Shown here piece by piece: positions 36,564-60,935 of a DNA stretch of 64,000 bases. Source of the DNA: Psammoneis japonica (Eukaryota); assembly GCA_008632985.1 (NCBI GenBank), contig QPGO01000160.1, positions 62,001-126,000 of the forward strand. Direction: 5' to 3'. A program made the position numbers and the translations under genes. Within the stretch, counting starts at the first letter, position 1, and each line of letters opens with the position of its first letter. The notes beneath the pieces are model-generated. The model searched no databases, was not told the origin of the DNA, and saw only the letters and a program-made list of their open reading frames with translations.

Positions 36564-36796
36564 AGGCTTTCTCTCTCTCTCTGTTATTGTTCAATCATGA
36601 GCAAGGAAAAAGGATACAGTAAGATCAAGAGTAGAGGCTGCAGTTTTGCTCAAACTTGATAGTTTTCTGACGTACTGTTAATATAATAGTGGCGTCCTGT
36701 TGCATTCATATCATTAACTCGTTATCTGATATGTGCCAGTCTTCTCTTTCATGACCTCATACGTACTTCTTCAGTATCAACCACCAACAAACCCTA

Positions 36797-38528: not shown

Positions 38529-38639
38529 AGCATTCGTTGAATGCACCAATGCACCAGTTTCACACTGTAGACCTCTTCGTAGTAGAAAGATGCATTGGAC
38601 AGACATTTTTATCAAACTTCTTACTACCCTCATCACTGA

Positions 38640-41322
38640 CAGGGGTGGGGGCAGCTGTGCTTTTTGATGATTTGGAGGGCTTCATCTTTGCAACATTTTG
38701 TGTGATGACAAACTTCCACACAAATCAGCAAATGCCCAATTGCAGTCCAGGTGGCAGTTCACTTGTGTCAGGACAAATGGACTCCAGCTGGCAAGTTGTC
38801 TTCCCATGCTGTGGCACATTGATTTCTTGCTGATTCTTCAAAATCTTGGCTCTTGGTCTCTTGGTCTGATGTGCATGGTGCCCTGGCAGTCTGGTGGACC
38901 AATCGCTGCTTGCTGGGGTGTTGCTGGTCATGATGCACAGGTGAGATAAAACAGCAGACACAATTTCTTTGCCTCCTGCAGTCAACATGAAAAATTGCCA
39001 AGCTGCTGCAATCTGCATTTTCAGTTTGGGCATGGTGTTTTTGTGCATCTTTGTGGTCCAGAAAACCCAACTTGATGGCAAGGTGTCCTCATTCCTTGTT
39101 GGCTGAAGCACATTTCAAAAAGCAATCTCTCCCATCCTTTCTTTCAAACACTCCACCAAAATAAAGCATGCAGCAATCTCTGCACAAAACAAGAAGCAGT
39201 TGGTGTTTTGGTTGTGGCTCATCTCATGCTGTTGAGGTGCAAAGGTGTGCATTTTTGCATGGACACCAACTGCCATGGTGCTTCAGCTGGTTGCCTTTGC
39301 TGCTGTTGCGCAAGCTTCCCCACACAGAATCTCCAAGCAAGTTTTGTGTGTTTTTGGGAAGACAAAACTTGGTCACATGCTTGGGCTGACAAGAGGCAGT
39401 GGCGCAAGCACCGGCTGAGTTGCACTTGTGATTTGTTTGTGACCACCCCTTTCATCCTTTGGTGGTGAGGTGAGTTTGGTGATGGGACCCTCGCAGCTGG
39501 TCTCAGCCAAAGTCAGGAGCTGTGGCTGGCTTTGGCAATCTTTTGCACCTCCGCTCTGCCACTGTGCCTGCTCACAATTTGTCAAAGCAGTCTTTGGTGG
39601 AGACATGTCTTTGACAAACTTCAACAAGAATTTGCACACTTGCTTGAGATTGCAAGTGTTGAAACACTTTGCAAGACATTTCTGCTGCTCATGCACTTGT
39701 TGGAGCACAAAAAAGAGCATTGGAAACACTTTATGAGATTGTGCTTGGTTGCAAGCATCACTTGAGCAAACTGAAAATCCCTGACAAATTGGCCAAAAAA
39801 TGAAGAGTTGATGGATCATGCTGCACATGGAGCATCATGTGTGCTCACTTCTGGAAGCCAAAAAACAGCCTCCTTGCATTCACCTTCATTGCTTTGTTTG
39901 TTGCTTTTCCACCTGGTTCTTCAAGAAACAGCGCAACATCTCCCCAAATTGGTGCACAAAACAGGGGGCTTTTGTCCCGCCACCAGTGGGCTGCCATCAG
40001 CTGTTTTCCAGAGCTGCCAAGCACATTTGGCATTTTGCATGACTGGTGTTGGAAGTTTGGCAACTCAACAAGCAAGCTTGTTTCTTGCTCAGCATCAACA
40101 TTGCAGCCCAGAGTGTGCAGGCAACAGTGGCCACTTCTGCTTTTGTTTTTGTCAGGAGCATCTTTGTCATTGTCAAATGGCTGGGGCATTGATGCAACCC
40201 AGTTTTTGCAAGGCCAACATGGGCCAGCAGATGACAAAACTCTACATTCAGTTTTCTGCTGAATGATGATTCTTGTTGCAGCAGAAAAAGAGTGTGGTGC
40301 AACCCCATTGTCAACAATCTGCAATTGTGCTGCCCAAAGTGGAGGGGGGGGGCATCAAAGAGTGCAGCACGTGCTTCTTTCTAATGCACATCAAATGACA
40401 GAGATTCTCCTCCCTGGTCTTTGGCTGAAGTTGCTGCATTGGCACAGTGTTTGCTGACTGACTTGACAAAACAAAAGCAGCAGTGCATGTTTGATGTGTC
40501 AAGCAAATCAACACAATAAAATGTGGCTTGTTTTTCCCATTGTGTGCATTTCTGTTGCATGGCAACATGTTTTAAAATGGCAAAAAGATTGCAAATCATG
40601 CCACTTTTTTGGCAAACAAAGCATTTTCCACACTCTGTTTTAACAACAAGACCAGCTTTTGTTTGTTGCTCCACCATGCATTCTTTGACACAATTGCGCT
40701 GTTCGTTGAAGAAATCCCGCTGGCTGCGGCACTGCTCTTGTGCGTGCCAGAGTGGTGGGGCACGCAATCTTTGTAAAAAAGAAAAAAAGAGCTGCCTGCC
40801 ACCAACCATAAAGAAACAACATAGACATGGTGGTGCGAGCCATCGTCAGTGCTGCTGATGCATGGTGTGCTTTTTGGGTGTCTTTGTTTTGTGATCCCCA
40901 AAAAGCACACCATCAAAAGGAAGTGCAGGCCCAGAGCACCACACTCTGTGGCAGCACTGCATTGTGTGGTTTGTTGAAGAAATCCCATTGCACTGCTCTT
41001 GTGTGTGCCAGAGTGGCAGCGAATGTGACATTCGCAGATGGAAAATGAGCCAGCCGTTGTTCTCAACCCCTTGTCTGAAAAGCACAAAATCCAAAACAAA
41101 CAAAAAGCCACCACAGGAGCCACTTCAAGGCATGTGATTAAAAACCCTGTGCACACTGTGGAGGTGGAATTTTCTGAAAATGGTTGTTGATGGAGACGAT
41201 GCGAGACAAGGGTGAAAATGGCACAGAAGAGAGGTGCACAATTCGAGATTTCCTGTGCGTGAAAATCCACCTCACCAGTCAGAAATTGACTGCCACGTCA
41301 TCCACAGTTTCGCAGAACCCTG
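38640..41322 (-). mobile_element. Decayed hAT-like DNA transposon (tentative)
   Basis: Imperfect terminal IRs CAGGGGTGGGGGCAGCTGTG / CAGGGTTCTGCGAAACTGTG (14/20). Minus-strand relics PCAA*SIN (cf. CxxHxxNL), LLTLAETS (cf. TRW) and SWVFW..MPKL (cf. dimerisation domain). TSD not convincing. Strongly TpA/CpG-depleted. Confidence 0.5.
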
Positions 41323-41746
41323 GTCAGGGGTGAGCTGCGGTGTTGACGAAAAAGTTTGTCTTGTTCAATCCTCTGACACTAATTATTGTACTCGTACATC
41401 TAAACAGTTGTCTATAGGAAGACCACGACTGACGGTACACACATATATGTCCAAAACGAGAACAAGAACCGATTTTTTAAATGTACTTTTGTTCGCTTCC
41501 ATAGCTTGTTTATGGAAGCACATGTCTTTGCCCCGTTTGTACGGTACTAGGGCATAAATATTATGAGATGGTTGTTAAATGAAGTGACTGTGCATTTCCC
41601 TGTGTTTCGGTAAGACACGACATTCCCGGTTTTGTTTTCCCACCTACCGCTCACGCCAAAGGTTTTAAAAAATATCACAAGAGGCGAGACGAGGCAGAGG
41701 GAAGTCACAAAACGCCCCAAGCAGAGCAATCAAGATCGTCTTCAAG

Positions 41747-44700
41747 ATGACCTTCATTAGCAAGGGGGTGTTTCTCCTTCTCATCGTTTCTTGCTGTGAA
41801 GCATCAGGTAGGCAACCTGTTGAGGGACATTCGAAATGACGGAAATTGATATCATGGATTTGATTGCTCACCAAATTCTTGTTTTTTTTGTATTGCTATC
41901 TATGCAGACCTCGCAACGAAGCTGGGGCTCAATGATGAAGTGCCAGAGAATGAATCCAGGTTGCTGCAAATACTGCCACTTAAATCTGGGGTAAGTCTGA
42001 TAAAGTACGAAACAAGAAATTAATTTGCTTTGATATCTAACTTTGTTTTCGTTTCGTGGACGATCGATGATGAATTGAATCACTCTATAGCTCGACAAAA
42101 TTGGAGCCTGTTGTTTCCCCGATTTCCCCGAGTTTCCTGGTATCTGCGGAATCGCCAGCAAACTGGAATGTCTAGAAGCAGGTGGAAAGTTCCAGGGAGG
42201 AAACACCGAATGCTTCGACGACACCTGTCCCACGGACACCACACCGGCTCCAAATCCGCCTCCTACTCCAGAGCCTACACAAGCACCTGATTTTGATAAT
42301 GGAGCCTGTTGTATTCCTGATGCAGACCCCGGCGAAAACTGTAAAGTTACGAAGACTGCAGCAATCTGCGAGAGGAGATTCTCAGGCGTGTGGCAAGGAT
42401 TTGGATCGTCTTGCAGACAAATTTCTTGTGATGCTCTTACGCCAGCTCCAACCCCGCTCGATGTAGATCCTACTCTCAGCCCGACTCCATTTAACGTCGA
42501 TCCTACCACCAGTCCGACTCCTTCGGAAGGTGAAACAGGTAGCTGCTGTGTGGTTGATGGTTCTTGCGTCGATGACATTGACCAAGCCACCTGCGAGTTC
42601 AGCGGCGGAGAATTCAATGGCAGCGGAAGTGTGTGCGCTGATGCAAGCTGTGAAGCAAAGCCTGGGGCATGCTGCAAGCCTGACGGTTCATGTGAACGGG
42701 CCAAGAATAGTAGAAGGTGTGCTAGAGATTTTGGTGGTATCTTCCAAGGACCCGGCAGTGATTGTGATGACTTTGATGTCATTTGCCCCATTGAATCGAC
42801 TCCAGCGCCAACTCCATTTGACGTCGTCACGGGAAGCTGCTGTTTCCCTGACGGTTCTTGCTCCGACGACGTTGATGAAACTAACTGCAATCTTAGCAAT
42901 GGAGAATATAATGGCGACGGGAGCACCTGCATTACTTCCAACTGCAGGGTACAGCGTGGAGCATGCTGTACCGATACAGGAGCGTGCGCCGAGACGAGAA
43001 ACAAGAAGCGATGCACAGTGGACTTTAATGGTATCTTTCTAGGACATGGCACCAGCTGCGACGTCGAGGGAGCGACCTGTCAGGATCCTTCTACTTCATC
43101 ACCTACGCCTCTGAACGTTGATCCAACCCTTTCCCCTACCCCTCAGGCGGATTCAACGCCATCGCCTACGCCTCAAGAGGTCATCACGGGTAGCTGCTGC
43201 TTACCGGACGGAGCTTGCATTGAAGGAGTTGATGAAGCAAATTGCAACCTCAGCAATGGAGAATACAATGGAGATGGAAGCACGTGTGCTAATTCCAATT
43301 GCCAGGTACAGCCTGGTGCATGCTGCATTCCCGAAACTGGCGAATGTGAACAATCCGATAACGAGCAAAGTTGTTTTACAGACTTTGGCGGTTCCTTTCA
43401 GGGTCCTGGTACCAGCTGCGATGATGAGAACGTTGTCTGCCCAGTCGACCCAACGCCAAGCCCAACGACCAGTCCTACAACCTTGTCTCCGACATCAAGT
43501 CCAACGAGGTCTCCTACAACACCCTCCCCCACTGGTTTAGACGTTCAGTTCGGTGCCTGCTGTTTTCCAGACGGATCCGTTAAGTAATCCCGCTCTTATG
43601 TTGTTTAGCTTCCATAGTTCGTCAATCCTCACAACTCCTTGTTAACCCATTTCGTTTCTACTTAGTGTGGGGATCAGATTGATGAAACCACATGCGAAAT
43701 CGACGGAGGTATCTACAGCGGGGATGGAATCACGTGTGACAATGTCAGATGTCGGCCACAGCCTGGGGCGTGCTGCCTTCCGGATGGAGGCTGCATTGAG
43801 CGAAGGAGTGCTACTCGGTGCGAAAGAGATGATGGAGAATTCCAAGGAGCCGGAACCTCTTGTGATGATGAAGATATTGTCTGTCCTGTTCCACCCAGCG
43901 GGGCTTGTTGTTTGCTGGACGAAGACGGCACTTGTACCTCTACCACCGAAGCGGAATGTGAATCAGAGAATGGTCTCTATCAGGGGGACCAAACTGAATG
44001 TGATTTATCAACCTGTCCGATCCCATCTCCAAGCCCGACCTCTGCAACGCCTAGCCCGACTTCACAACACCGAGTCCTTCTGTTGCCACCCCTAACCCGA
44101 CCGTCGCAACGCCGAATCCGACCGTTTCAACCCCTAGCCCAACAGTCACAACGCCCAATCCGACCGCGGAAACCCCAAGCCCGACTCTCGTTACCCCAAG
44201 TCCGACACCAAAGCCCACGAGAGAACTGAGCGCTTGCTGCCTCGAGAGCGGTGAATGCACTCTGCTCACTACGAGGAAAAGGTGCGAGATCACGTTCGGC
44301 GGTAAATTTCAAGGCAAAGGTAGCGTCTGTGAAGACGACACATGCGCAATTACTCCCGCTCCAACGCCACTTGATGTTGATCCAACACTGAGCCCAACGC
44401 CTTTCAGCACCAATCCTGGCAACGGTACACTGAGTCCAACAGTTACAACGGCAAGTCCCACGCCAATGCCCACCAGAGCAAAATCTGCCTGCTGCTTGTC
44501 TGATGGCGAATGCATTCAGGTCACTACGAGGAAAAGGTGCGAGAATAGGTTCGGTGGTACATTTCAAGGTAGAGGTAGTGTCTGCGAAGACAACACCTGC
44601 GCAATTACTCCCGCGCCTACACCACCTCTTGACGTGAATACACCCAGTCCAACACCAATGCCGACCAGACGACCAAAATCTGCCTGCTGCTTGTCTGATG

Positions 44701-45773
44701 GTGAATGCATGCCTGTCACTACGAGGAAAAGGTGCGAGAACAGATTTGGTGGAATATATCAAGGAAGAGGCAGCGTCTGCGAAGACAAAACTTGCGCAAT
44801 TACTCCATCGCCTACACCCCCTCTTGATGTGGATACACCCAGTCCAACACCAATGCCGACGAGACGTCCAAAGTCTGCCTGCTGCTTGTCTGATGGTGAA
44901 TGCATGCCCGTCACAACGAGGAAAAGGTGCGAGAACCGGTTTGGTGGTATATATCAAGGAAGAGGAAGCGTATGCGAAGACAACACCTGCGCATTTACTC
45001 CTTCTCCAACTGCAACTCCAAAAACTCCTTCTCCGACACCACTCGATGTGATTGACCCAACCCCTCCCCCCACACCACCCACAGAGAAGCCAGGTGCCTG
45101 CTGCTATACATTTCCCAGCAAGGGCGGCAGCAAGGGAGGTGACAAGAGCAAATCCAAGGGCGGAAGCATGGGAGGCGACAAGAGCAAATCTAAAGGCGGT
45201 AGCAGCAGCAGTAGCAAGGGAGGCGACAAGAGCAAATCCAAGGGCGGAAAAGGCAAAGGTGGAAAGAAAGGATCATCCAGCAGTAAAGGAGGCAGCTCCA
45301 GTAGCAAAGGAGGAAAAGGCAAAGGTGGGTGGTGGAGAGATCGCGAGCTTACCTGGAATTTGTCTTGGAATAGAGACCGGAGATGGGATACGCATTTGAA
45401 CACAAAGCGGTACCGGACTGGAGAATGTAAAATTGTCCCAGAGTCCCAATGCTATGGAAAATGGAACGGAGCCGGGAGTACTTGCAACTATCTTACATGC
45501 CCAGCATCCGATATCGGAAAAGGCGGTTCCAAGGGCCGTTACTCCAAGGGCCGTTATTCCAAGGGCCACTCCAAAGGAGGCTCAAAGGGCCACACCAAGC
45601 TCTTCTCCAAGGGTCACTCTAAAGGCTATTCCAAGTTTTTCTCCAAGGGCGGCTCCAAGGGTCACTCCAAGGGAAGGTATTACCGTTATTTCAACAAGCC
45701 TAGCTCTAAGGGTGGAAAGGGAAAAGGTGGGAGTAGGAGCAAATCAAAAGGAAAAGGTGGAAAGAGAGCATAA
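41747..45773 (+). CDS. GACC-repeat gene E: 16 modules (N-terminal ones acidic), Thr/Pro linkers, Lys/Ser/Gly-rich C-terminus
   Basis: Exons 41747-41807, 41908-41990, 42091-43578 and 43666-45773. Signal peptide MTFISKGVFLLLIVSCCEAS; ESRLL (RxL); 1-bp frameshift near 44061; SKG repeats at the end. Confidence 0.82.
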
Positions 45774-46792
45774 ACCAGTCTTGACGCTTCTGATAAAGGG
45801 AAAAATCACACCACCACTTCTTGATTTCCATACAATAAGTTTTGCTTACTACACGATGCATTTTTCTTCGTCTACATTTTGCTTAAAAACGAGTGGAGCC
45901 CAAGATCTAAAACAGCATTTCGACCGCTCGATTTGTCGGTCGCAATTGCCACTCGTTTTTGTCTCCTTCGATTCTGAAATTCGGAGCAAAATACGCACCC
46001 GTTTCTTGAAAATCAAAATTTAGAACAAGGAGAATGACATAGACATGGCTTGCCATGATTGTGCAGTGTTTGTGATGAAGTTTCTTGATCGGTCTTGCTT
46101 TTCCAAATCAATAGTCTCTATTGTTTGCAATGTTCGTACCGGGATGGGCATCGTGATTTAGTGCAAAGCTGCCACATTAGCAACCGCAATCATTTGTCAA
46201 GCAATTTGCTACTTGATTCGTTTCGTTTCGTCAAGAGTTCAGGATCGACAAGCTCGATGGTGGGCCATTTTGTAACGCTAGAATGTTACGAGCTACACAG
46301 TCGTCATCGCGCAACTACAAGCAACATCAGTGCAAAAACAAGATGAGGTTGGACGAAACGAAAAACAATCCCCGATTTAGTTTTGAAGCCCCTGAAACCA
46401 AAACCATTGCCCCGTTTGCGCGTTCAGCTCATCGCCGTGCACCATGGGTGCCGTCGGTTTGTCCTCTCTCTCTCTCTCTCTCTAACGAACGAACGATCAA
46501 ACTACTCTATACTCTAGAGGCCAGATAGAGTACGGTAGCTTAGTGATGAAACCAGTGCTCATGTGTCTAGGATTTTTGATTCGTGGGTTGGTGGCGGCAT
46601 TTGGAATTTGGAATTTTCAGGGTGAGTCCAAATTGAAAATCAAAATGAATCTCGCCGTTTCTCCGCGCGTTCCCCGGCCCGCGACCGCGACCCACGATCC
46701 AGATCTGGATCGTTGAAGTCCCTACCGGTACATCATCATCATTGCGAATTTTCCTGTCAACATCAACATCACTTTGAACCCCCTTGCCCATC

Positions 46793-47551
46793 ATGGCAAC
46801 CACTCGCGACGAAACGAAGCCCTGCTGCCAGGGGTCAAGCCCTACAGACTATGTGTCCAAGGGTGAAGAATCTTTGCTTGGTGATATGAAAGTCTACACG
46901 GTTGGTCCTTCTTCTTCGGACAACAAGAAACCAATTGGGATTCTGGTATCTTACGATATCTTTGGCTTTGACATGACCGGAACTCGTCAGTTTTGCGATA
47001 AACTTGCGGAGACTACAGGATATACCGTTGTGTTCGGTGACTACTTTCGTGGGAATCCATGGCGCGAAGTCCAGTGGCCACTCCAAGGTGAAAAGGACCA
47101 AGTTTCCTTTATGGACTGGGTCAATTCGTTTTCGGACGAGCACTTGAGTGGGGACATTACAGTGCTTCGAAACTACCTACGAGAAAAGGGTATTGTCAAG
47201 ATTGGAGTCTTGGGATTCTGCTATGGTGGCAAGGTAACGGTATTGGCCGCCAAAATGACGGGACAGTTTCAAGCTGCCGCTACCATGCACGGTGCCTTTA
47301 TCAAAGATGACGACGCAAAGGATATCGACTGCCCGCTATTAATGGTGGATGCGGGCAATGACCCGGATCGCACAGAGCTCATCAAGGTCATGAAGGCCAA
47401 GGACGTTGCAACGTTGTGCGATTTTGTGCGGTTTCCCGACATGGAGCACGGTTGGACAAACCGCGGCGATCAGTCGATCCCAGAAGTGAAGAAGGCCATG
47501 GATGAGGCTTTCGACCGAGCTGTCAAATTCTTTCAGGACTGCCTTGAGTGA
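46793..47551 (+). CDS. Dienelactone hydrolase family protein
   Basis: DIFG, GFCYGG nucleophile elbow, AGND and HGWTNR (Cys-Asp-His triad). Confidence 0.92.
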   Translation: MATTRDETKPCCQGSSPTDYVSKGEESLLGDMKVYTVGPSSSDNKKPIGILVSYDIFGFDMTGTRQFCDKLAETTGYTVVFGDYFRGNPWREVQWPLQGEKDQVSFMDWVNSFSDEHLSGDITVLRNYLREKGIVKIGVLGFCYGGKVTVLAAKMTGQFQAAATMHGAFIKDDDAKDIDCPLLMVDAGNDPDRTELIKVMKAKDVATLCDFVRFPDMEHGWTNRGDQSIPEVKKAMDEAFDRAVKFFQDCLE

Positions 47552-48133
47552 AGAAAGAATGATGAATGTTATTGCGTTCGAAACTATATACAAATACCTA
47601 CCTACTGCTCGTTTTGCATCGATCAAGAACCTTTGTAACGTTCCGTAGTCGCTTGAGCGAATTCTTACCCACTCCTTCATAAAGTAGGTCCTTATTATCT
47701 TTGTTTATAGACATTTCGGTGATCCAATGGGGGATGATCCTGAGCAGTAAATTAGTAGAAGACCGCAATGAATGATGGGCCGAGAAGGCTTGAGGATGAA
47801 GGGCAAAACAACAACGCCAGGTTGGGTGCCAAGTCTGATGCCCTTAAATGCACTCCTCTATCAAAGAAATTGAAGAGAAAACTTGATTAGCGGTAGCAAT
47901 ACTCTTTCTAGAGATAAAAGGTAACTGTGGTTTAAGAGAATAGCAGATTCGTTTTCTTGCCCTTAAAGAAAATTAGAAAGCAGCAGCCGAACAAGACTTT
48001 TCTGGCATCCATAGTAGCATGCTGAAGTGTGATATCCACCATTGGAGTATATTGTAGATGCGCGGCTTCGAATGTAAAAACTCCATTCAAAAAGCTCCAA
48101 CTTTAGACAGCTAGAGCTAGTTTTCTCCTCTCT

Positions 48134-49234
48134 TTGTTGGCGGAACACCATTTGCACAGCTGGCGTGCTCGTTGCGAGGAAGCCGCAGTAGATTGGAAAG
48201 TGGTCTGCGCAACTGCCAAGCCCCACACTGGCAACCACTTCTTCCATCCGAAGGATGCTGCGAAGCTAGCTGCTCGAGTACCATCGGACTTAAAGAAACG
48301 AAACGAGCTCGAACTACTGTATGAAATCATGGGGCATCCAACAGATCCAGGATCGAAAAAGATGAAACCAAACACATCCCTTGAGCCTGTAGAAGTTACA
48401 GGTGTTGACTGCACATCTCAGTCTTCCCGAATCGCGGTTTGTCCAGACCGGAGCGACCGCCAAGCATTGAGCCGTACAGCTCGCAAATGAGTCGGCGAAG
48501 TGTCACAGCAAGATGCAGAATGACTCGCATTGCCAGCATCTGTACTCTGATGATGATGATCTGTCAGAGCGTGTCCGAGTTGTGGCGATTAAAGACCCAA
48601 ACCACCCGGCCCATCTGTTTGCATTGCCCAACTGTGTTGCACCCGGGGAGTTGTTGCCAACAGGAGCTTTAAGAGAGGCGAGGTGGTTTTTTGCCATGGA
48701 GGTGAAACAAGAGTCTTGACCTTTCATCATTTGAATGCAATGGACCACCAATCCACATTTGTGGGAAGCACAGCATTGGCAGAATGATCAACGATCCTTG
48801 TTCTGTTGGAAGCTCATGGAAAAGGAAAGTGAATTTAATGATGATGCCAGATTGGGACAATGCTTCTAAAACTCCTCAGATTCTCCTCATGGCAACTCAG
48901 GGCATTGGCAAAGGAGAAGAGCTGTTCTGTGACTGTGGGGCCCCCACATTGGAAAGTTTGCTGGAAACAAATGATGCTGGCACATGCCACATTCACTCCT
49001 CAAACAACTGCCAAATGCAAAGCCATGAAAAAGGCTCTTTGGGGAGGAGAGTTGGACGAAAGCTCTGTCAGCTCAGACAGCAACAACACTGATGACTCTG
49101 CCTGCACAGAAAGCAGTGACACCAATGAGGACGAGGCGGAGGAACACAATCGTGATGAGCAGCTGTGCAATGAAATGCCAGTTGCAGCTCTTGCTTGCCC
49201 ATCAACTTCCTGTGATTGGAACAATGAGGGGTGA
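48134..49234 (+). pseudogene. SET-domain pseudogene
   Basis: IGRMINDP and LMATQGIGKGEELFCDCG.. followed by frameshifted PHW (cf. ATRDIxxGEELxYDYGxxYW); stops and frameshifts. Confidence 0.7.
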
Positions 49235-49395
49235 GTTGGGCTCCCAACACAAATCTCATTGTGAATGACCAGTCCACATTGCAGCCGCACATGCACAAAC
49301 CACAAAGTTGCAGCTCTTGCTTGCCCATCGACTTCCTGTGATTGGAGCCGATGAGGGGTGAGTTTGGCTCTCAACACAAATCGTGTTGTGGATTG
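49181..49395. repeat. Imperfect direct repeat, period ~126 bp
   Basis: GTTGCAGCTCTTGCTTGCCCATC.ACTTCCTGTGATTGGA...GAGGGGTGAGTT at 49181 and 49307. Confidence 0.85.
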
Positions 49396-49859
49396 CCAAC
49401 AACCTTTGTGTGATTTGAGTTCACAATGCTTGACAAGCTGCCATTGCAAAGGTGAGAAAGGTGTCATTGACTCAAGTCTGTCAAAATGGCCTGAATGGGC
49501 TTGGCTCTAGAATGCAGTCTTGCCTCAAGAATGTGTCAAACTGCTCTGGTCTCAAAGAAATGAGTGCTCAGATTTGATGGACTGCATTCACAATCTAATG
49601 CTCTGCTCTGTCTGAATTTTCCACCATGTGTTTCTAAATGTTTGCAGTTGAAATTGCTGCAATTGACCACATGGTGCTGCATCATGGCCAACAACAAAAC
49701 CAATGAACAAGACAATTTGTTCAACTCAGGACATTTGTCATTTGAAGAGAGGACTGGAGCCACCAGCCAGCAGGTGGCTTGAATTGTTCCCTGCCAGCCC
49801 AAGGTTGCAAACAAGGGTGTGGCTCCAGACAACTTGTGGTTGTCAGCCCCCTTTCTGCC

Positions 49860-50652
49860 ATGGCACTCACTTGCAACAAAACAAAGCCCTGCTGCCAGAG
49901 GTCAAGCCCAACAGACCATGTTTCTGAGGGCAAAGAATCCATGCTTGGTGACATGAAAGTCTGCATGGGTGGTCCTTTTCTTGTTTTTCTTCAGATGATG
50001 ACATGAAAACAGCTGGGGCTCTGGCATCTTGCAGCATCTTTTGCTTTGACATGGCCAGAACTTGTCAATTTTGTGGTGAGCTTGCGGAAACGGCAGCACA
50101 CACCATTGCATTTGGTGACTGCTTTCATGGGAACCCATGGCACAAAGTCCAGTGGCCACTCACCAAGGTGAAAAGGACCAAGTTTCCTTTGTGGACTGGG
50201 TCAATTTGGTTTTGCACAAGCATGTGAGTGGAGACATTGCAGCACTTCACAGCCACCTGTGAGAAAAGGGCATTGTCAAAACTGGAGGTCTTTGGGCTCT
50301 GTCTTGATGGCGCAAGAAGAAAGTGATGGCATTGGCTGCCAAAGTGATGGGACAGTTTCAAGCTGCTGCTGCTGCTGCTGCCATGCATGGCACCTTTGTA
50401 AAAGACAACAATGCAAAGGACATCAGCTGCCCACTGCCAATGGCGTGTGTGGGCAATGGCCCAGATTGCACAGAGCTCATCAAGGTCATGGAAGCCAAGG
50501 ATGTTGGAACCTTGCATGACTTTGTGAATTTTTCCAACATGGAGCACGGTTGGACAAACTGCAGCAATCAGTTGACCCCAGAAGCAAAAAAGGCCATGAA
50601 CAAGGCTTTTGACCAAGCTGTTGAATTTTGTTGGGGCTGCCTGGAGTCATGA
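49860..50652 (+). pseudogene. Hypermutated duplicate of the dienelactone hydrolase gene
   Basis: Colinear with 46793-47551; frameshifts; differences dominated by TA->TG/CA and CG->TG/CA. Confidence 0.92.
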
Positions 50653-51260
50653 AAGAAGAGAGTGCTGGATGATCATGTTGCATTCAAAGCTGCATGCAAG
50701 CACCTGCCTGCATCTCTTTTTGCATCAATCAAGAACCTTTGTGTCACTCCACAGTCACTTGAGTAAATTCCTGAAAACTGCTTTGCAAATTTGACTTGTG
50801 TGTTCTTTGCTTGTCAACCACTTTGATGATTCAATGGAGAGATGTGATTCTGAGCAGCAAATTGGCGGGAGACAGGGGTGAATGACATGCCGAGAAAAGG
50901 CTTCAGGATGAACGGCAAAACAACAACGCCAGGTTGAGCACCAAGTCTGAGACCTTGAAGACACCCCCCCCCAGCAAAAACATTGAAGAGAAACCTTGGT
51001 GACCAGCAGGAATGTTCTCTGTGGAGACAAAGTGCAGTTGTGTGATTTTGTCAGGCAAGTTGATTCATTTTCTCACTGTCAAAAAATTAAAATGTTAGAA
51101 AGCAGCAGCTGGACAAGACTTGTTTGGCATTGATGCCACTCCAAAGTGGCATGACATCCACATTTGGGCACAGCAGATGCGCGCGCAGCACTTCGAATGT
51201 AAAAACTCCATTCCAAAATCTCAAACTCTGTCTGGCCAGTGGCTGGAGCTGTTTTCTCTT
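49860..51260 (+). repeat. Segmental duplicate of ~46790-48130 (gene plus downstream region)
   Basis: Shared blocks GGCAAAACAACAACGCCAGGTTG, TTAGAAAGCAGCAGC and CTTCGAATGTAAAAACTCCATTC. Confidence 0.9.
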
Positions 51261-51569
51261 CTCTTTTTTTTCCCAAAGCACACATCTCCCGCCCAGAGTC
51301 CATTTTGAATTCTGACTTCAAAACCTTCAACTGCCAGAGCTGCTGGCTGCTCTCTCTCTGCTCTAGCCAGCAGTGGGGCCAGCTGAACTCCAGAGGCAAC
51401 TCCCTGAACTCCAGAGGTGACTCTGGTTGGAGGAGGGCGGGGGAGAGAGAAGAGAGGAGCAAGAAGTGGTGACACACAGACACTGCAATCCCCGTGCCAA
51501 GTGCAAGCAAACTGGGGGATTCCCATCTGTGAAGTGACAATTTGGTGTGAAGTGATCACGCAGAATTGC

Positions 51570-54510
51570 ACGCATTTTTTCTAGCACTGAAATTCTGATC
51601 AGAACGCCACCAATTTGTGTTGTGATTTGTCAATGGACACAATCTGTTTGCGTGCAAATTGCCACAGTAAAGTTTGCCATCGAGTTCCAGATGAGAGAAC
51701 AATCTTTCCCTCCAGCCTCATCTCTCTCTCCTCCACTCAACTTCTTGCCGAGAAAAAAATGCAAAAACCGTCATCCCGACTCGTCGACCATGGCGCTCTG
51801 GTTCCGAACCTGTCATCCACACTGTTGAGCTGTTGATGCACCATTCGATTTGTGAGAGTCGACATGACAAGAGACCATGCACAGCATGTGCACAATGCAT
51901 TGTCGCACAATTTTTTTCTGTCATTGTCGACGCACATCCCAGCAGTGATTTCACATGAGGTTTGAATTTTACAATGATCCGTGTGCAACAATCAGCTCGA
52001 CATAAATTTCAAAAACACCCAAAACACAAAGCAGACTTGTCTTGCAACAGCAATCTGTGTTTGCCACCATGCACATTCACATCCTCAGTGTGTTGACACT
52101 GTCACTGCTCCTTCACCGGCAGATGCATTCAAACCTTTGGAAAAAGCCAAGGCAAAAGGCAGAGCAAAGGGAATGAAATGCCCACGCATGGAGAAGTCTT
52201 TGAAGTTTCACATTCTTGTGGACTTCTGTGCAAATGGCAATGGAGTTTCTTTAAGCTGTTGCTGCCAGAATGTCCACCCCAAGCACAGCAGCCATCACAA
52301 CACCCTGAGTCAGGCATGGGGACAAAGTGGACTTCGTCATCTTCATCAAGAAGGTGCTTCAGTGGAGAAAGCACAAGAAGCCATTTGCAACTGTTTTGGA
52401 GCAAAAGACAAGAAGGCAAAGGAGGCAATCACTGCCTTTTTTTGATGTCCGGACAACCACAAACGGAAGCATGGAAAAAGATGCAATGCTCAACTTTGCC
52501 ATTCATCACTGCAAGAACCTTCCCAAGGGTCAAGGAAAAACAAGTTACGCGACAGATGAGGAACGAATGAGGAACGCCATGATGCTGCTGCTCGACGGAC
52601 ATGCCTTGCATTGGTGCTGCGCCGCTCTCAAGCATTTCTGGGATCACAACATCCATTGTTTTTTTTTTCACCATCTCACACATCCATCTGGATGCAACCA
52701 AATGATTGAGGTGTCAACAAATGCCTGCATGCCAAGATTGAGGAAGAGGCAAAGAGGGTTGGGTGCGAGAGCGGTTTTGCAGAAGGAGTGCAGTTGACAA
52801 ACCGAGTTTTTCTCGCCGCTTGGAAGGCTCACCTTGAAGCCGAGAAGGCTGAGCCATTGTTCAAAGGAAGCAATGTCTGCACAAGCACCTGGAAGGAAAC
52901 TGGACTCGAGCCAGTCAACCCCAACTGCATGGCGTGGCCGGAAGTGTGCTGGAGACAATGGGGACCGCACACGACCTCACCCTGGAATCGCAAAGAGAAA
53001 AGGAGGAACAAGCACAAGAGCAACAAAAACAAGAGTGGGAAATTGAGCCTCTCCCACCTGACAACCAAGTTGCCATTGTTGAGAGATTGAGAAATGTTCT
53101 CCGCAAGGGCTGCGACAATGATGACGACGACCTGCTGCTTCACGACTTGGATGTCGCGATGCTTGTGGCAAAATCAATGTTGGCAAAATGGAGAGAGGAC
53201 ACAGAGTGCAAGAGTGAGAAACCAGAGCCAACAAGCAAGCAAGAAGAACTGGCCATGCAACTTGTGCAACATTGCTCACCTGATGCGGCATCACTGCCTG
53301 TGCGGCGGAAAAGACGAAAGAGGAGCGCACGAGAGATTGGACTGCAACGGAACTGCGTTCGGTGCGACCTTTCATTGATGCTGTTGAGGTGCAATTTTTT
53401 GATCCCACTGGTGCAACCTTTGATGGAGTTGTTGTGCTCCAAACCAATCAGAATTGGAGGTTGGTGCTGGAAGATGGGACTGAGCGTGTTGTGACCGAGA
53501 GTGATTTGTTGGGTGCTTCTAAGCACCGCGTCGACCCCAAAAAATTCTGAAAGATCCTGCTGCAACCAGAAGAGAGCATCTCCACAAAAGGCAACAGAGA
53601 CAGAGAGAGCAGATGGCATCAATCAAGGCTGCAAAACGGAAAACTTCAGAACAGCGCAATGAAATGTTTAAAGTCTGGCATCAACAACAGCAAGGGAAAA
53701 CAATTGGTGAGAGCTTTTCTTTTCAGGATTTTTTGCAATTGAAAGAGATGATTGAGAAACCACATGTCGCCTTGATTGACGGCTTCAAAGCAGAGGTGAA
53801 CAGCAGTGGTGCAAATGCTGTCAGCATCACAACGTGTGCAATGACATCAAACGTGCTCACCGGTTTCAAGCAAAAGGATGTGGTTGCCAGCACAGTGGGT
53901 GCTTCTGAGCAACCGCCCAAAAAGAAGAGACGTGGAGCCCTTGTCAAGACAGCACGAGGTGAGAGTGCAATTGTTGCTGTGTGCCGCACCAAGACAAGGA
54001 TGATCGAGGTGGGCAAGGCAGAGCAAACAAAACTGAAGGCTGACATTGCCAAGCAATCGAAAGCGCTTGACGAGTTTGATGCGCACTTCGCTCCAGTGCG
54101 CCTCAGTGCGGTGAGTGCGAGACGTCGAAGGGAGATGAGCTGAAGATCTTGATTCGGCTGGTTTGTCCAAATGCCGGTTTGTCAGGGAAGAGCATTGAAG
54201 TGAAGAAGAAGGAGCTTAAAGAGCAGAACGTTACAAAAGAATGTCTCGACTCTATTTACGTTCAGAAAAGGCGCGATCTCGATGACCTCAAATCAAAGCT
54301 TCAGGACTCTTCAGTTGACAGTGATTCTGACGACGAAGACCAAGAAGAATTGGCTAAATGTGTGATCGTCTACATCATCTAGACACTTTGTGTGAATTTT
54401 CATGAACGGCTGTGATGAGAACCAAATTTCGTTAACTTTTTGTACCGTATGAGAAATGTGTCAAGTGATTTTTGATAAACGACCTCGCAACGAAAAAATG
54501 TTGCACGTAT
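51570..54510 (+). mobile_element. Decayed pogo/Tc1-mariner-type (DDE_1) transposon
   Basis: TTNGSME..LPKGQGK..MLLLDGH and, in the next frame, PSHTSIWMQPND*GVN (DDE_1 motifs). Ends approximate; only weak terminal IR similarity. TpA-depleted. Confidence 0.75.
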
Positions 54511-55103
54511 GGAAGAGACGTCCGTTAGGTAACGGCTATTTTCTTATCGTAACGGTTGATTGTGCGGTGCCAGCTGTCTGCTCAACCCACTTGTACCAAG
54601 CCACGTAGAAAAATCGCGTAGCGGAAATCCGGTGGATGATAATTCTGTAGAAAGCTACGATGCGATGCCTGGTATGAGCAAAAGGAGAATTGGGTCGAGT
54701 GATCATCAATCTATTTTATACCAGAGCCTACGTGATTCTACGCCTGACGTCATAATCACTTCAGAGATGGGAATCATCATCCCCTACAGTACCCAACGGT
54801 AACCGAGAACCCGAAACCGACCGACGAGCGAAAGCAATACCTGGTAAGCGTTAGAGCAAGGCGGTCATCGAAATCGATCCGATTAAATCCACTATCAGCA
54901 CTGTATCTGCTAGCTAGGGCAACTTACTCGAGCTGCCTTGTATTGTGTACATTTCTCTGTGTGCTTTGTTTAATCTCAGGATAGGATTGAGTTTCGACCT
55001 GGAAGATAGAGAAACGAGGACGTGCTCTGTAAAGAATCATCCGATTGAAAGATCACCATTTTTGCTGCTCATCAGACAGAACGAATTGAGACCAAGAAAC
55101 ACC

Positions 55104-56658: not shown

Positions 56659-57982
56659 CTAGAAATCATCATCGTCCTCCTCGGCATTCCATAGCTCAAA
56701 TAGCTCTTCCTCCGAAAAAGTATCTCTAGCTTCGTCGTCAAATAAGCGCGATTGGGCTTCAACCAAGGGTTGCTCTGGTCGAGAGGAGTCCTTTTCACGT
56801 ATACCCTCAGAAAGCTCAGACAAATCTTCCTCTGATGGCCCTTCTTGAATAGCTTCGTTTCGAACACTCCAACTAAAACCAGAAATGGCTTCCAAAGCTG
56901 CGATTCGTCTAGACTCCAGACGAGAGCTTTCAATATCTGAGCTCTGAATCTTGCGGTACTCATGCCTTTGAGTATTCACCCAATACCTCAAGTCTCGGTT
57001 CTCTGTATCCAACGGGTCAATCTGAACATGTCCATGGTCATGCTGGTAAAGCCTTAGTCGTTCCAACATTTGAAGCCACTGCTGCTGTTGAGCATTCCAA
57101 CAAAATCCAATTTCCTCCAATGCTGCAATCCGTTCTGCAGTAAGCGTCGAAGACTGGCCCGTCCAGAATCGCTTATGCTGACTGCGTTGGTTCATTACAA
57201 ATTGTCCCAGCTCAAAATTATCAAAATAGTCCTCGGGTACATTGACATGCCCATACACAGCTTTGAATGCCTGCAACTCTTGGAATCGATCGTCCCACAG
57301 ATCAGTCCGAGGAGTATAATCGTCAAAGAATCCCAGAGACGAAAGAGCCTCGAGTCGTTCGGGTGTCAGCCGCTTTGCTCTTGAGGACGAGTCTGCTCTC
57401 ATGAGCATTCGATAATCACCAAGTTGGTTCTGCGTCCATTCGTACAGCTTGGGATACTCGTTTCGACTCGCCGCTCGGTGACACGGCAATGTCCGTGTTG
57501 AGCTCGAAAGGCACACAGCTCATCAAACCGAGTTGCCCACGTGAGTGCATAAACGTCCCAACAAAACCCCAACGATCTCAAATCCTCTGTTTGTTCTTTG
57601 GAAAGGATGACTTTCGTCTTCGTACGTTTTGAACCCATGATCCCAACTTGGGAAATTCACTGCATCTGTATGGGACTAGGCAATGTCCGTGTTGAGCTTT
57701 AAATTCCTCGAGTTCGTTGAGCCGCGTTTGCCATACACCTGAATGAACTGTTTTGGTCTTTTTATCAATATATCCATATTTTGCTTTCAAGAAAAGGGGT
57801 CTCTGTCGCGAGGAAAGTATTCCATGAGTATGGCGGCGTTGGTTGTAACCGCGAATGGGTGCTGTAATCATCATAAGACAATCTACTGATGTCCATGAAG
57901 ATGCACTTCGTGCAAGCAACAAAACTGTAAACAGAAACTTATGCAATCCAAAAGGGCGGAGCGTCAAGGCTTTATCCATCAT
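56659..57982 (-). CDS. Helicase-associated (HA) repeat protein, probably plastid-targeted, two apparent frameshifts
   Basis: Four W...L..F/Y...HGH..V repeats with LGF.W-like ends spread over three ORFs; presequence LLLARSASS/W. Confidence 0.75.
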
Positions 57983-58349: not shown

Positions 58350-60935
58350 ACGCTGAACACGCAACCAGCACAACAGAAAACACAAGAACCAACAAGCAAC
58401 CATGGCATCTTCTTCGACATAGCAAATTTCGCCCTCCAATGCGACCTCAACCTCGACCACATCGATGCAAATGGAATTGCAAGGTCGACAGCATACGCAT
58501 TCGTCGCGAGACATCTCCGACAGCAGGGTCTCAATCGGTACCAGCAATCTTGCTGGCGCGCAGACAATGTTGCGGCCGGACCTGTCGTGTTCCACGCCGC
58601 TGTCACAGTCTTTGCAAACACAGTCGAAGCAAGGTTTGGAGTTGGGATATTCCGACATCTCCACTACGAACAACGTTTCAACTTCATCGCCATCCGGTGA
58701 GGGAAGCTACGCTCCTTTGTACACGGAAGGGAATGCGCAGTTCGTCATGACGGACAAGCATAAACTGGTTCTTGATATCATTGGGGAAAAGCAAGCGTTG
58801 GTATGCAGATCTGCAGAACACTCTCACAGAGGCCGAATGCTGTGAGTGTTTTAGCCGTGCTGGACTCACATGAACGACGAGACCTTTCCCGACACCGCCG
58901 CAAATGAAAAGCTCCTCCCCCACGCCAAGGAAGGGTGGGAACTCTTGCGTGCGACAAACAGACTCAGTGAGGAACATCCACAGGAAATGTCGGAACTGTT
59001 CAAACGGGCCATGGCTCAGGGAAAGCCCATGGGCGAGTTCTGAAATATTGAACGTTGTGCATTCTATTTTAAGACAACAATGTTTGTAGAAACAAACTTT
59101 TTCTGGATCAACAAATTCAAAAATGCCCCCACTCTCCTTTTATGAAATTCATGCATTCATCATCTTGTCTTTGTTGCAGTTGCCGCCATCACTGACAAAT
59201 GCTTCTTGTCCATTTCCAACCAAGGTTCGAATGACGCCATCTTCAGTCATTTGATTGGCCATCTTTCTGACCACATTCCGCCCATTCTCATTACGATGCC
59301 CCAACCCGCGGTTTGTAAAAATTCATGGCTACCGCCGTCATCGACACCGTCCGTCCACCATGCAGCCGCCACAAAAAAAGGAACGTATCGACACAATTTT
59401 TTAGAGCGACGCATCGGACAAAACTCGCATTTACACAAAGGTGCACTGCACACAGCACGTCGGGACGTTTCGCTTGCAGTCGAATGTGTTGCCTGTGCTT
59501 GTGCCAAGGTGTTGTCACTGCACTTGTTCCAAGTGTGTTCTCCATCAATCAGCATCCTGTTGCACTGTCATTGGCTGCCATGTGGACAGAGTTGCAACTG
59601 CGGTGGTTCTTTGGAAAAGAGGTGGTGGGTGCAAATTTGGGGTGTGAGTTGCTCCACCTGATCATCTCATTCTTGCAAAAGGAACAAGATGCACATGCCA
59701 TTTTGTTTCTGACACCCATGGACACACCAAGCAGATGGGATCCAGGGTGCTGAGTGCCTTGTTTGATGGCAGCAATGGCTGTGACAACATCAGCAACATG
59801 ACGTGAATGTCGCCAATCATGCCGCAGCCACTGCAAGCAAGCCACAGGAAGCACCATCATTGTCAGACAACAAATCTGATGATGAGGAGGAGAGTTCATT
59901 GCAAGAGGTTTTGAACTTGATTCCTTGCATCATGGGTCGTGCCTTGCATTTTTGCAGAGCATCTTTGCAGCAGTCCCCGGGTTCTTAAATTTTGCTGCCG
60001 TGGTGCCTCGATTGGTGCGCTGGCACCACACAACAACATCATGGGTCATGCCTTGCATTTTTGCAGAGCATCTTTGCAACAGTCCCCAGGTTCTTAAATT
60101 TTGCTGTTGTGGTGCCTCTCGATTGGCGTTCTGGCGGCGTGACAATGACAAGAACACCAACAACAAGTGCAGCAACTGCAGGAAGCTGCAGCACAAGAAT
60201 TTGGCACTGTTTCCCATTCCATCACAGCACTTTCCAGGTGTGACAACCAAGATGTTCTGCATTGAGGGCGGGGCATCGAGAGACAGATGATGACCTGCTG
60301 GCATGCAAGAGATCGGCCCACTCAATTGCACATGGATCACAAGGGATCTTGCGGGGAAATGTGGGACAGACATCTGCCACTGAAGCAGCCAACAAAGGTG
60401 CCAGCTGCGGCACACTCAATGTGGGAATCATGCCTGTGTCGAGCCTGGGAGCCGCGGCTTTCCGGCAAGCTCGTGGGTGGTGGGGGTGGGGGTGTGCTGG
60501 TTGATGGTGGACTGAGTTGCTCGATCACACACAAGTTCAGTGCAGGAAGATGTTGCAAGGAATGCAGATTTTTGTCCAGTGACCAAGTTCCTTCTCATTT
60601 GCGAGCTGCCTTTTGCAGAGCACTTCGGAAAGCAGCTGTCCCCCGCGCGACTGACCTTTCCTGTGCACCGGGAAGTTGAGGGCAGCAGCAGCCTTGTCTG
60701 ATGCAACAATGAGCCAAACAACACCCTCAGATTGAGAAAAAGACATGATGAAGAAAAGAAACCCTGGGGGCAACAGAATTGTGCTGCCACAGCAGGCCTC
60801 CGAACAACAGTCGAATTGAAATCTCGGAGTTCGGAGCTCGTGCTGTTTGAAACTTGACTGACGTCATCGGTGTTCCCAAAAACCACACAAACTGTGATAG
60901 TCAAATGCCCAGGTGGCTCTTCCCGCCACAAATTT
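58350..60935. other. TpA-depleted degenerate domain, possibly a decayed DNA transposon
   Basis: 59440-60935 has only about 2 TpA. Minus-strand relic AVCSAPLC...KNCVDTF resembles a piggyBac-type Cys-rich tail (weak). Confidence 0.55.
59927..60135. repeat. ~110-bp tandem duplication
   Basis: CATCATGGGTC.TGCCTTGCATTTTTGCAGAGCATCTTTGCA.CAGTCCCC.GGTTCTTAAATTTTGCTG occurs twice. Confidence 0.9.

Follow-up and report, generated by a model that had tools for sequence, protein, structure and literature searches.

A duplicated hydrolase gene and the fate of its TpA steps

What strips TpA dinucleotides from some stretches of a diatom genome and spares the DNA beside them? This question is raised by a hydrolase gene of Psammoneis japonica and its decayed downstream copy, which lie within the 64 kb of this one genome that we analyzed (contig QPGO01000160.1, here called the window). 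The diatom origin agrees with the DUF1365 protein, for which the six entries with a named organism in the best 120 homologues all come from diatoms. The gene (46793 to 47551, plus strand) is intact and unmutated, encodes a dienelactone hydrolase of 252 amino acids, matches Pfam PF01738 over profile positions 2-215 of 217 (E=2.9e-25), and has four full-length homologues with 49-60% identity. Local alignment of this parent and its non-coding 3' flank (47552 to 48138, plus strand; aligned region, 46779-48138) with the copy of both (49847-51269, plus strand) gave 1351 columns in 27 blocks, separated by 26 indel breaks, and the homology extended ~590 nt beyond the stop codon. Nucleotide identity was 77% and rose to 89.8% in a purine/pyrimidine alphabet; the 305 mismatches comprised 230 transitions and 75 transversions. 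The copy contained one in-frame stop, and its best open reading frame (ORF) piece matched PF01738 only at E=0.0025. The copy is a hypermutated pseudogene derived from the neighboring host gene.

The initial annotation had held that the intact reading frame polarizes the changes. At the 89 residues that differ between the copies, four outgroup proteins (49-60% identity) agreed with the parent allele at 66 and with the copy at 7, with 16 uninformative, which bears this out. Replacements at conserved residues in the copy were of Tyr by His or Cys and of Arg by Cys or His. This protein comparison shows the copy to be the derived state and the TA-encoded Tyr residues the ancestral one.

The changes in the copy were directional, as had been claimed. 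It kept only 2 of the 64 aligned parental TA dinucleotides, while 29 had become TG, 25 CA, and 8 something else, so that 54/64 were converted with both strands equally affected. All six TA in the segment at 47584-47605 were converted in its counterpart at 50690-50711, the example first quoted for the pair, and both strings were found at these positions. Parental CG dinucleotides also decayed, with 55 of 62 lost and 7 kept; 27 had become CA and 23 TG (50/62 together). TG was unchanged at 74/98 sites and CA at 63/77, and double changes were found from TG to CA at 12/98 and from CA to TG at 6/77. When A-to-G changes were counted on both strands, the frequency at TpA was 58/128 (0.45), clearly higher than at ApA (22/232), CpA (21/175), and GpA (22/183), which ranged from 0.09 to 0.12 (65/590 together; Fisher p = 3e-17). 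Only 8/128 TpA adenines carried transversions. C-to-T changes were likewise concentrated at CpG (53/126, versus 53/493 in other contexts, p = 2e-14). The rates in this analysis come from this one polarized pair (64 TA) and from one unpolarized pair (18 TA sites) described below. The homologous flanks differed in the same way: the parent flank holds 41 TA and 18 CG in 587 nt and is free of hypermutation, while the copy flank holds 4 TA and 8 CG in 614 nt.

TA-poor islands across the window

The loss of TA was regional. Five TA-poor islands together make up ~29% of the window, with a TA observed/expected ratio of 0.09 inside and 0.61 outside (TA frequency, 0.57% and 4.1%) and a TG/CA ratio of 1.6-1.7 inside and 1.1-1.2 outside, at a GC content of 0.486 inside and 0.478 outside. 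Island 1 (10984 to 12710) contains TA-free runs of 241, 910, and 561 nt, and between 11001 and 12000 its observed/expected ratios were 0.01 for TA and 0.26 for CG. Island 2 (27173 to 32859) is strongly TA-poor (0.07-0.20) and only mildly CG-poor (0.64-0.90). The corresponding values were 0.03-0.16 and 0.13-0.58 for island 3 (38256 to 41379) and 0.09-0.17 and 0.52-0.61 for island 5 (58853 to 60897). The fourth island (48400 to 54216) holds the hydrolase copy; its 1-kb windows had TA ratios of 0.03-0.10, CG ratios of 0.14-0.57, and TG/CA ratios of 1.5-2.0. Its left edge is gradual, with TA declining from ~48120 to 48870, and the parent flank, 1.7 kb off, is unaffected. Its right edge is sharp, with normal TA density from 54217.

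That right edge falls within a multi-copy element (51346 to 54700), over which summed contig depth was 440-1240, versus 56 over 45334-51345, and the final ~480 nt of which (54217-54700) have normal TA density. The element had no match in Pfam, PHROGs, or viral contigs. TA loss therefore spans DNA of single-copy depth (48400-51345) and ends within a multi-copy stretch, and repeat sequence is not its limit. The same island holds a probable SET-domain fragment, decayed and split over two frames (48641 to 49089, plus strand), with weak PF00856 matches below the curated cut-off (E=0.058, profile 2-27, in 48641-48787; E=0.003, profile 60-105, in 48706-49089). The sole significant domain match (E <= 0.001) within any island was a RusA-like resolvase ORF in island 2 (30241 to 30903, minus strand; Pfam PF05866, E=3.4e-10; PHROG 140, E=2.2e-11). 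No viral-contig relatives were found for the two island ORFs searched. Island contents thus comprise a multi-copy element, the RusA-like ORF, a host-derived hydrolase pseudogene, a possible SET fragment, and diverged duplicates and spacers.

Sequence context and strand pattern

In the hydrolase pair, TpA adenines followed by a pyrimidine were converted at 37/66 sites and those followed by a purine at 15/58 (p = 0.001); by trinucleotide, conversion was 20/31 for TAC, 17/35 for TAT, 7/29 for TAA, and 8/29 for TAG. Where the tetranucleotide was informative, the pyrimidine-flanked A was chosen 23 times versus 7 (p = 0.005). The TA that survive within islands independently fit the same preference, with RTAY making up 2/74 of survivors versus 540/1832 outside and YTAR 27/74 versus 313/1832 (chi-square p = 5e-8). 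The mutated A thus prefers a 3' pyrimidine (T-A-Y), and R-T-A-Y is the best context, a detail that the initial annotation did not contain. No strand-coordinated runs were detected in the pair, which had 36 runs versus 27.9 +/- 3.6 in shuffles.

A direct repeat and read support

A 1526-nt direct repeat in island 2 (left copy, 27001 to 28526; right copy, 31035 to 32560; both plus strand) is 98.2% identical without gaps. Its 28 differences fell at 10/18 TA sites (56%), 13/71 CG sites (18%), and 5/1348 other positions (0.37%), so that TA sites diverged ~150-fold and CG sites 50 times faster than other positions. Since the differences are concentrated at TA sites, the process is recent and distinct from CpG decay. 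TA loss is also the stronger of the two, and island 2, TA-depleted with CG only slightly lowered, shows that they are partly uncoupled.

A contig from public run X1 (6297 nt, k-mer depth 56), which may come from the assembly's own sample, spans 45247-51541 at single-copy depth and differs from the window by 12 letters, 10 of them in the island half. Across the X1 contigs, CA/TG swaps accounted for 5/33 events, one of them at 50701-2, a TA in the parent. Together with the repeat pair, these contigs indicate that TA sites changed after duplication or between haplotypes, and along with the TG/CA double changes of the hydrolase pair they speak for activity that is recent and continuing. None of the three observations named in advance by the initial annotation as fatal to its claim was made: A-to-G change was more frequent at TpA than in the other NpA contexts, the X1 reads supported the altered sequence, and the outgroups did not place TG/CA as ancestral.

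An artefact of sequencing or assembly, such as the miscalling of modified bases as G or C, is hardly credible as the source of the pattern: the window does contain a 131-N gap and so is scaffolded, but the X1 contig reproduces the sequence with the reservation given above, and the transversions and indel breaks between copy and parent indicate real age.

A proposed process and its candidate chemistry

Taken together, these results make it likely that the diatom islands are under persistent, region-limited hypermutation of A:T to G:C at TpA, best in R-T-A-Y, alongside ordinary CpG decay. The hydrolase copy landed in such an island and preserves a polarized record of the process. A given TA is mutated once, with either strand equally likely, to give TG or CA, and any newly arising TA or CG is removed again, so that every pyrimidine-purine step drifts to TG or CA. 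Targeting may be set by a local condition, silent or methylated chromatin for example, and not by sequence homology.

The initial annotation had suggested a TadA/ADAT-like deaminase as the mutator. Such an enzyme acting on DNA would convert A to hypoxanthine, read as G, and we advance it tentatively, from sequence context. It fits the 5' T and the 3' pyrimidine, and T-A-Y suits it better than ADAR or polymerase eta. Both TadA/ADAT enzymes and TadA-derived base editors edit an A that follows U or T, and in the window a 5' T is required and a 3' Y preferred, a resemblance of context only. The target context of bacterial-type TadA is UAC, and most tRNA targets of eukaryotic ADAT2/3 have a purine after A34; by this analogy the 3' pyrimidine would fit the former and less well the latter. 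To our knowledge, no natural TadA/ADAT-family enzyme edits chromosomal duplex DNA region-wide. A YAC preference has been reported for a TadA-8e variant (review PMC13109818). As the initial annotation had stated, no candidate enzyme gene lies in the window, since a Pfam scan of its 156 ORFs of at least 100 amino acids returned no deaminase, including none of the CDA fold (HxE...PCxxC).

At a palindromic TpA, adenine-directed and thymine-directed chemistry leave identical patterns. A TET/JBP-like oxygenase or other enzyme could modify T in R-T-A, with the product mispairing with G or being misrepaired, giving T to C on the opposite strand. The strand symmetry (29 TG versus 25 CA, without runs) and a motif equally readable as R-T-A agree with this, as do the facts that 5-hydroxymethyluracil in dinoflagellates and base J at trypanosome telomeres occur on T before A and that oxidized thymines can pair with G. 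We nonetheless think it unlikely: no evidence was found for such modified bases in diatoms, the same Pfam scan found no oxygenase domain, and the authors of the only comparable study (Mettrop et al., bioRxiv 10.64898/2026.01.13.699255, 2026) favor adenine deamination in the available text. The probability left over by these two candidates goes to some chemistry not yet conceived.

A trigger like that of fungal RIP, in which duplication itself sets off the mutator and the islands are old repeats, is improbable. It would account for the hydrolase copy, the direct repeat, and the multi-copy element, all duplicated DNA within islands, and RIP resembles the present case in that duplicated or mobile DNA decays by transitions only, in its strong dinucleotide signature, and in its role in genome defense. 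However, RIP mutates both copies, and here a single member of the hydrolase pair was mutated while the parent flank kept its TA. The loss also stops within the multi-copy stretch and is graded at its left edge. Furthermore, RIP converts C to T at CpA and creates TpA, the opposite of the direction found here, as the initial annotation had pointed out.

Error-prone repair of the polymerase eta type, with its WA hotspots, had been offered as a second candidate; brought to the islands, it would be a poor fit. In antibody hypermutation, polymerase eta makes A-to-G changes at WA, and more strongly at TA than at AA. In the copy, ApA stayed at background while TpA was raised, and the near-complete loss of one dinucleotide with few transversions is unlike patch synthesis, making this reading very improbable.

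Equally remote is the idea that the islands consist of foreign or mobile DNA already TA-poor on arrival, through virus-like composition or ADAR-like RNA editing before retro-copying, with no mutation in place. The RusA-like ORF, the lack of other recognizable host genes in the islands, and the integrated viral targets described by Mettrop et al. in the text available speak for it. Against it stand the origin of the hydrolase copy from a neighboring host gene, with homology running well past the stop codon, and the TA-site changes in the repeat pair and X1 contigs. An ADAR origin also disagrees with the survivors. ADAR prefers a 3' G, but TAG and TAA survive here, and the strands are equally mutated without runs. 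APOBEC3 and ADAR do resemble the present case as deaminases that produce context-specific transition showers in defense, but their substrates are single-stranded DNA or double-stranded RNA, and they leave strand-coordinated clusters, unlike the equal strands and 3' pyrimidine preference of the islands.

Comparison with known systems

Decay of CpG by 5-methylcytosine deamination resembles the excess loss of CG to TG and CA in the copy, but accounts for the CG half of the pattern only. Part of a diatom genome is CG-methylated, according to the available text of PMC6604790.

We found no literature report of TpA-specific hypermutation in diatoms, and the initial annotation's statement that none was known there still stands. 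For algae generally it is outdated, as Mettrop et al. describe TpA-specific hypermutation in Bigelowiella natans, where it affects viral DNA integrated in the genome. In the available text of that preprint, 230/231 mutations in two viral regions of mutation-accumulation lines were A-to-G or T-to-C, all at TpA, and the de novo rate was raised in some lines only. Both cases involve A:T-to-G:C changes at TpA giving TpG/CpA, restriction to certain regions, and TpA depletion with CpA and TpG enrichment, and an adenine deaminase is proposed for both; in the window, the specificity is seen in the 54/64 conversions and the confinement in the five islands. The two also differ. The window is from a diatom, B. 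natans is a chlorarachniophyte, and erasure is near-complete in the former (TA observed/expected, 0.01-0.2), compared to a Rho of 0.45 in the giant-virus region of B. natans. The targets in the window are a pseudogene of host origin, spacers, and an element present in many copies, whereas those in B. natans are proven viruses. CpG decay accompanies TA loss in the window, and the T-A-Y preference is not reported for B. natans; the words "CpG" and "trinucleotide" do not occur in the preprint text available. Finally, rates were measured directly in B. natans and were inferred from sequence here. A targeted A:T-to-G:C signature has so far been reported only in that one preprint, on an unrelated alga, and the process acting on the islands of this diatom may be of the same kind as the TpA hypermutation measured in B. 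natans.

Decay of TA and CG dinucleotides in a copy of the hydrolase gene

An intact, intronless dienelactone-hydrolase gene lies at 46793-47551 (+) and matches the full-length profile of Pfam PF01738 (E = 2.9e-25). It has four full-length homologues of 49 to 60% identity, and the window's own hydrolase protein was absent from the protein collection searched. A decayed copy is found approximately 3.1 kb downstream, and local alignment paired 46779-48138 with 49847-51269 over 1,351 columns in 27 ungapped blocks, with 77% identity, 230 transitions and 75 transversions. The initial annotation had proposed that an adenine-directed mutator converted TpA to TpG or CpA in this copy; the strings it quoted are indeed present at the coordinates it gave, with all 6 of the 6 TA of a 22-mer converted. 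Only 2 of the 64 TA of the intact locus were kept in the copy, 29 having become TG and 25 CA, and 7 of its 62 CG were kept, with 27 changed to CA and 23 to TG. By comparison, TG was kept at 74 of 98 positions and CA at 63 of 77. Measured per adenine on either strand, A-to-G changes occurred at 58/128 adenines preceded by T, compared with 22/232 where the preceding base was A, 21/175 where it was C and 22/183 where it was G (Fisher p = 3e-17 for TpA against the other contexts), which bears out the claimed TpA specificity. C-to-T changes occurred at 53/126 cytosines before G versus 53/493 otherwise. The loss of TA and CG in the copy is far beyond chance.

The direction of these changes was determined by comparing four outgroup proteins with the intact protein and with the copy translated in the parent's frame. 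At the 89 residues that differ, the outgroups agreed with the intact protein at 66 and with the copy at 7, and 16 were uninformative. Conserved tyrosines (TAY) were replaced by His or Cys in the copy and conserved arginines (CGN) by Cys or His. Since the outgroups side with the intact allele, TG and CA are the derived state, as had been supposed. These results come from one polarised pair in one 64-kb window; no additional parent-copy pair was detected when the window was compared with itself in a purine/pyrimidine alphabet, a recoding that raised the identity of the hydrolase pair (46779-51269) from 77% to 89.8%.

Preferred site and strand pattern

Within the hydrolase pair, the mutated adenine was followed by C at 20/31, T at 17/35, A at 7/29 and G at 8/29 candidate positions, or by a pyrimidine at 37/66 versus a purine at 15/58 (p = 0.001). 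Where a TA offered a single adenine followed by a pyrimidine, that adenine was chosen 23 times versus 7 (p = 0.005). The 74 TA that survive in the cores of the TA-poor islands described below included 2 RTAY and 27 YTAR, compared to 540 and 313 among the 1,832 TA outside the islands (chi-square p = 5e-8). Together, the 3' pyrimidine bias and the depletion of RTAY among survivors indicate that the preferred site is R-T-A-Y; an adenine-directed enzyme would see it as T-A-Y, a thymine-directed one as R-T-A. The two strand outcomes were balanced (29 versus 25) and formed no strand-coordinated clusters in the pair (36 runs versus 27.9 +/- 3.6 in shuffles), and thus give no sign of processive attack on one exposed strand. 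At CpG, the mutated cytosine was preceded by A or T at 36/68 positions versus G or C at 14/56.

TA-poor islands and their boundaries

Five TA-poor islands, at 10984-12710, 27173-32859, 38256-41379, about 48400-54216 and 58853-60897 (islands 1 to 5), occupy approximately 18.4 kb of the 64-kb window, and the hydrolase copy lies in island 4. Inside them, TA makes up 0.57% of dinucleotides (observed/expected 0.09), with observed/expected values of 0.50 for CG and 1.6 to 1.7 for TG/CA, and the longest TA-free run is 974 nt. Outside, TA makes up 4.1% (observed/expected 0.61) and CG observed/expected is 0.92; the G+C content is nearly equal inside and outside. Directly left of island 2, after a 131-N assembly gap at 26242-26372, lies a kilobase unusually rich in both dinucleotides (observed/expected 1.16 for TA and 1.41 for CG).

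The left edge of island 4 is graded, with TA thinning over approximately 48120-48870 and CG from about 48680, and the right edge is sharp, at 54217. The stretch from 51346 to approximately 54700 has a summed contig depth of 440 to 1,240 versus 56 in its neighbours and is therefore a multi-copy element; its 206-aa ORF had neither a viral-contig relative nor a Pfam match. TA loss includes DNA of single-copy depth and stops about 480 nt short of the end of the multi-copy stretch. The non-coding 3' flank of the parent gene retains 41 TA in 587 nt versus 4 in the 614 nt of the homologous flank of the copy. Since the parent flank was spared, and since the loss covers single-copy DNA and ends within the multi-copy stretch, targeting follows a domain. 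Homology-based targeting of the kind seen in RIP was rejected because the parent flank is spared, and the repeat as such is also not the guide. We infer that the targeted domain is silent or methylated chromatin, with which the CpG loss is consistent. A family of paralogous, internally repetitive ORFs (18915-21454, 23601-25855 and 33858-36577; 68 to 90% identity, no Pfam match) was found in TA-normal DNA, so duplicated host genes outside the islands are not hypermutated.

Pace and persistence of the process

Island 2 contains an ungapped direct repeat of 1,526 nt (27001-28526 and 31035-32560) whose copies are 98.2% identical, or 99.9% after purine/pyrimidine recoding. Its 28 differences fall at 10 of 18 TA sites, 13 of 71 CG sites and 5 of 1,348 other positions, 2 of these 5 being a single CA/TG swap, so that TA sites diverged approximately 150 times and CG sites approximately 50 times faster than other positions. 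This pair was compared without an outgroup; because TA is nearly missing from island 2, the net flow must run away from TA. The strong loss of TA (observed/expected 0.07 to 0.20) and mild loss of CG (0.64 to 0.90) in this island indicate that the two decays are separable and that TA loss is the faster. Double changes in the hydrolase pair (TG to CA at 12/98, CA to TG at 6/77) were far commoner than two independent transitions of about 10% each would yield, as expected if each new TA or CG is soon converted again. These patterns indicate that the process is persistent and recent.

Contigs from two public sequencing runs, X1 and X2, were compared with the window. An independently assembled X1 contig of 6,297 nt (k-mer depth 56) spans 45247-51541 and reproduces the assembly but for 12 letters; X1 is possibly the same sample as the assembly source, so this agreement excludes assembly or polishing error, not every systematic read error. 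The island half of this single-copy contig holds 10 of the 12 differences. All X1 contigs together differ from the window at 159 positions, and the 40 of these that were listed form 33 events: 14 at CG, 4 at TA, 5 CA/TG swaps and 10 others. One swap lies at 50701-2, where the parent gene reads TA; one ancestral TA thus had different fates, CA and TG, in the two sequences. An X2 contig spans the intact gene (46756-47649), and X2 gave no cover from 47672 to 50677.

Open reading frames in and near the islands

TA-free DNA lacks TAA and TAG, leaving TGA as the islands' only stop and thus long open frames on several of their strands. One example, a 644-aa ORF in island 2 (27746-29677, +), had no relative in Pfam, PHROGs, viral contigs or the protein database and was set aside as probably a false ORF of this kind. 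A RusA-like Holliday-junction resolvase ORF (30241-30903, -; Pfam E = 3.4e-10) remains open in a TA-poor island. Phages and bacteria are the usual carriers of RusA, so this ORF may mark foreign DNA; its relatives on 11 viral contigs (best segments 26 to 55% identical) are a generic family match, uninformative on the origin of the island. In island 4, two sub-threshold Pfam pieces in adjacent frames and N-to-C order form a possible decayed SET-domain fragment (48641-49089, +), which looks like a second hypermutated pseudogene adjoining the hydrolase copy. Between the two, within the island, an element of about 88 nt occurs twice (49180-49393; spacing 126 to 127 nt, 98% identity over a 41-nt core).

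Upstream of the hydrolase gene, a long ORF of Lys/Gly/Ser-rich short repeats (44055-45770, +) contains KGGSKGG... units of 12 and 36 to 48 nt and 195-nt repeats at 44221-45060, with a weak CXXC Pfam match only; we take it to be reminiscent of diatom cell-wall proteins. Two ORFs with helicase-associated domains (HA, PF03457) lie at 56662-57519 (-; E = 1.8e-39) and 57581-57982 (-; E = 1.9e-14).

Of the 120 top-ranking homologues of the DUF1365 protein in the window, 6 carried organism names, all of them diatoms (Seminavis, Phaeodactylum, Fistulifera, Fragilaria and two truncated names interpreted as Attheya and Odontella); the highest identity was 48% among these six and 52% among the 120. Background TpA is 4.1% outside the islands versus 6.0% given for B. 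natans (bioRxiv 10.64898/2026.01.13.699255). The DNA is therefore that of a diatom lacking close sequenced relatives in the protein collection, and not that of B. natans. Seven metagenome loci around DUF1365 relatives, approximately 40 kb in total, contained no TA-poor island (lowest 1-kb TA observed/expected, 0.38). Just three of them, totalling about 20 kb, have an identity of 42 to 48%, and the sample is far too small to represent other diatoms.

Discussion

The islands record a DNA-level, domain-limited, TpA-specific A:T-to-G:C process. Its chemistry would best be accounted for by a TadA/ADAT-type adenine deaminase, to which we give somewhat less than an even chance. The A34 that TadA/ADAT edits in tRNA, as far as is known, always follows U33, and the bacterial TadA substrate reads UAC; most targets of eukaryotic ADAT2/3 carry a purine after A34, which counts against an ADAT-type enzyme here. 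A YAC preference is reported for a TadA-8e variant in a review (PMC13109818). As the initial annotation stated, the window holds no candidate enzyme gene, and no deaminase domain was found among its 156 ORFs of at least 100 aa. A thymine-directed modification would yield an identical pattern, and we consider it improbable. The error-prone repair by a Pol-eta-type polymerase that had been offered as another source fits poorly, since ApA, at 22/232, is not raised. ADAR-like editing followed by retrocopying also fits poorly, since a 3' pyrimidine is preferred, strand runs are missing and flank is retained well past the coding region. Both were rejected, as was RIP, and a sequencing or assembly artefact is rejected by the agreement of the X1 contig and by the 75 transversions and many indels of the copy, which are the expectation for an old, real sequence.

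So far a single description of TpA-directed hypermutation exists, a preprint of 2026 on the rhizarian alga B. natans. In mutation-accumulation lines of this species, two integrated viral regions acquired 231 mutations, of which 230 were A-to-G or T-to-C, each of them at TpA, at rates about 1,000-fold over background; 124 clusters were TpA-poor and CpA+TpG-rich, and an ADAT2 homologue was proposed as the enzyme (bioRxiv 10.64898/2026.01.13.699255). The process in the window therefore belongs to this kind, which was described only very recently. Its distinguishing features are the lineage, the near-saturation, the mutation of host-derived and spacer DNA within the domain, the CpG decay that accompanies TpA loss and the preference for R-T-A-Y; the available preprint text mentions neither "diatom" nor "CpG" nor "trinucleotide" (bioRxiv 10.64898/2026.01.13.699255). 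Our literature search found no diatom report on hypermutation, RIP or dinucleotides and none joining diatoms with TpA, TpG and CpA together, in line with the first reading of the sequence, and "TpA" does not occur in the available text of a P. tricornutum mutation-accumulation paper (PMC6604790).

A broader reading, which we put forward as possible and still rather doubtful, is that an R-T-A-Y-specific editor acting on duplex DNA, and targeted by chromatin, exists in diatoms. It would convert A:T to G:C and, with CpG decay, erase transposons, integrated foreign DNA and anything else that shares their silent domain. Such a system would rely on a naturally occurring adenine deaminase of DNA and would parallel fungal RIP while running in the opposite chemical direction; if common to diatoms and chlorarachniophytes, it would be old and widespread in SAR algae.

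For annotation, the islands produce long false ORFs, which would probably lead to over-prediction by gene callers, and domain searches miss transposons that have been hypermutated; purine/pyrimidine alignment offers a simple route to hypermutated copies, with homology recovered. A natural A-to-G enzyme acting on chromosomal DNA, if it exists, would interest the base-editing field. A comparative hunt for it is possible among genes common to species with TA-poor islands and missing elsewhere, and the extended motif of the polarised gene pair (T-A-Y = R-T-A) narrows the candidates. The occurrence of the same signature, near saturation, in diatom DNA suggests that this form of genome defence is widespread among algae.
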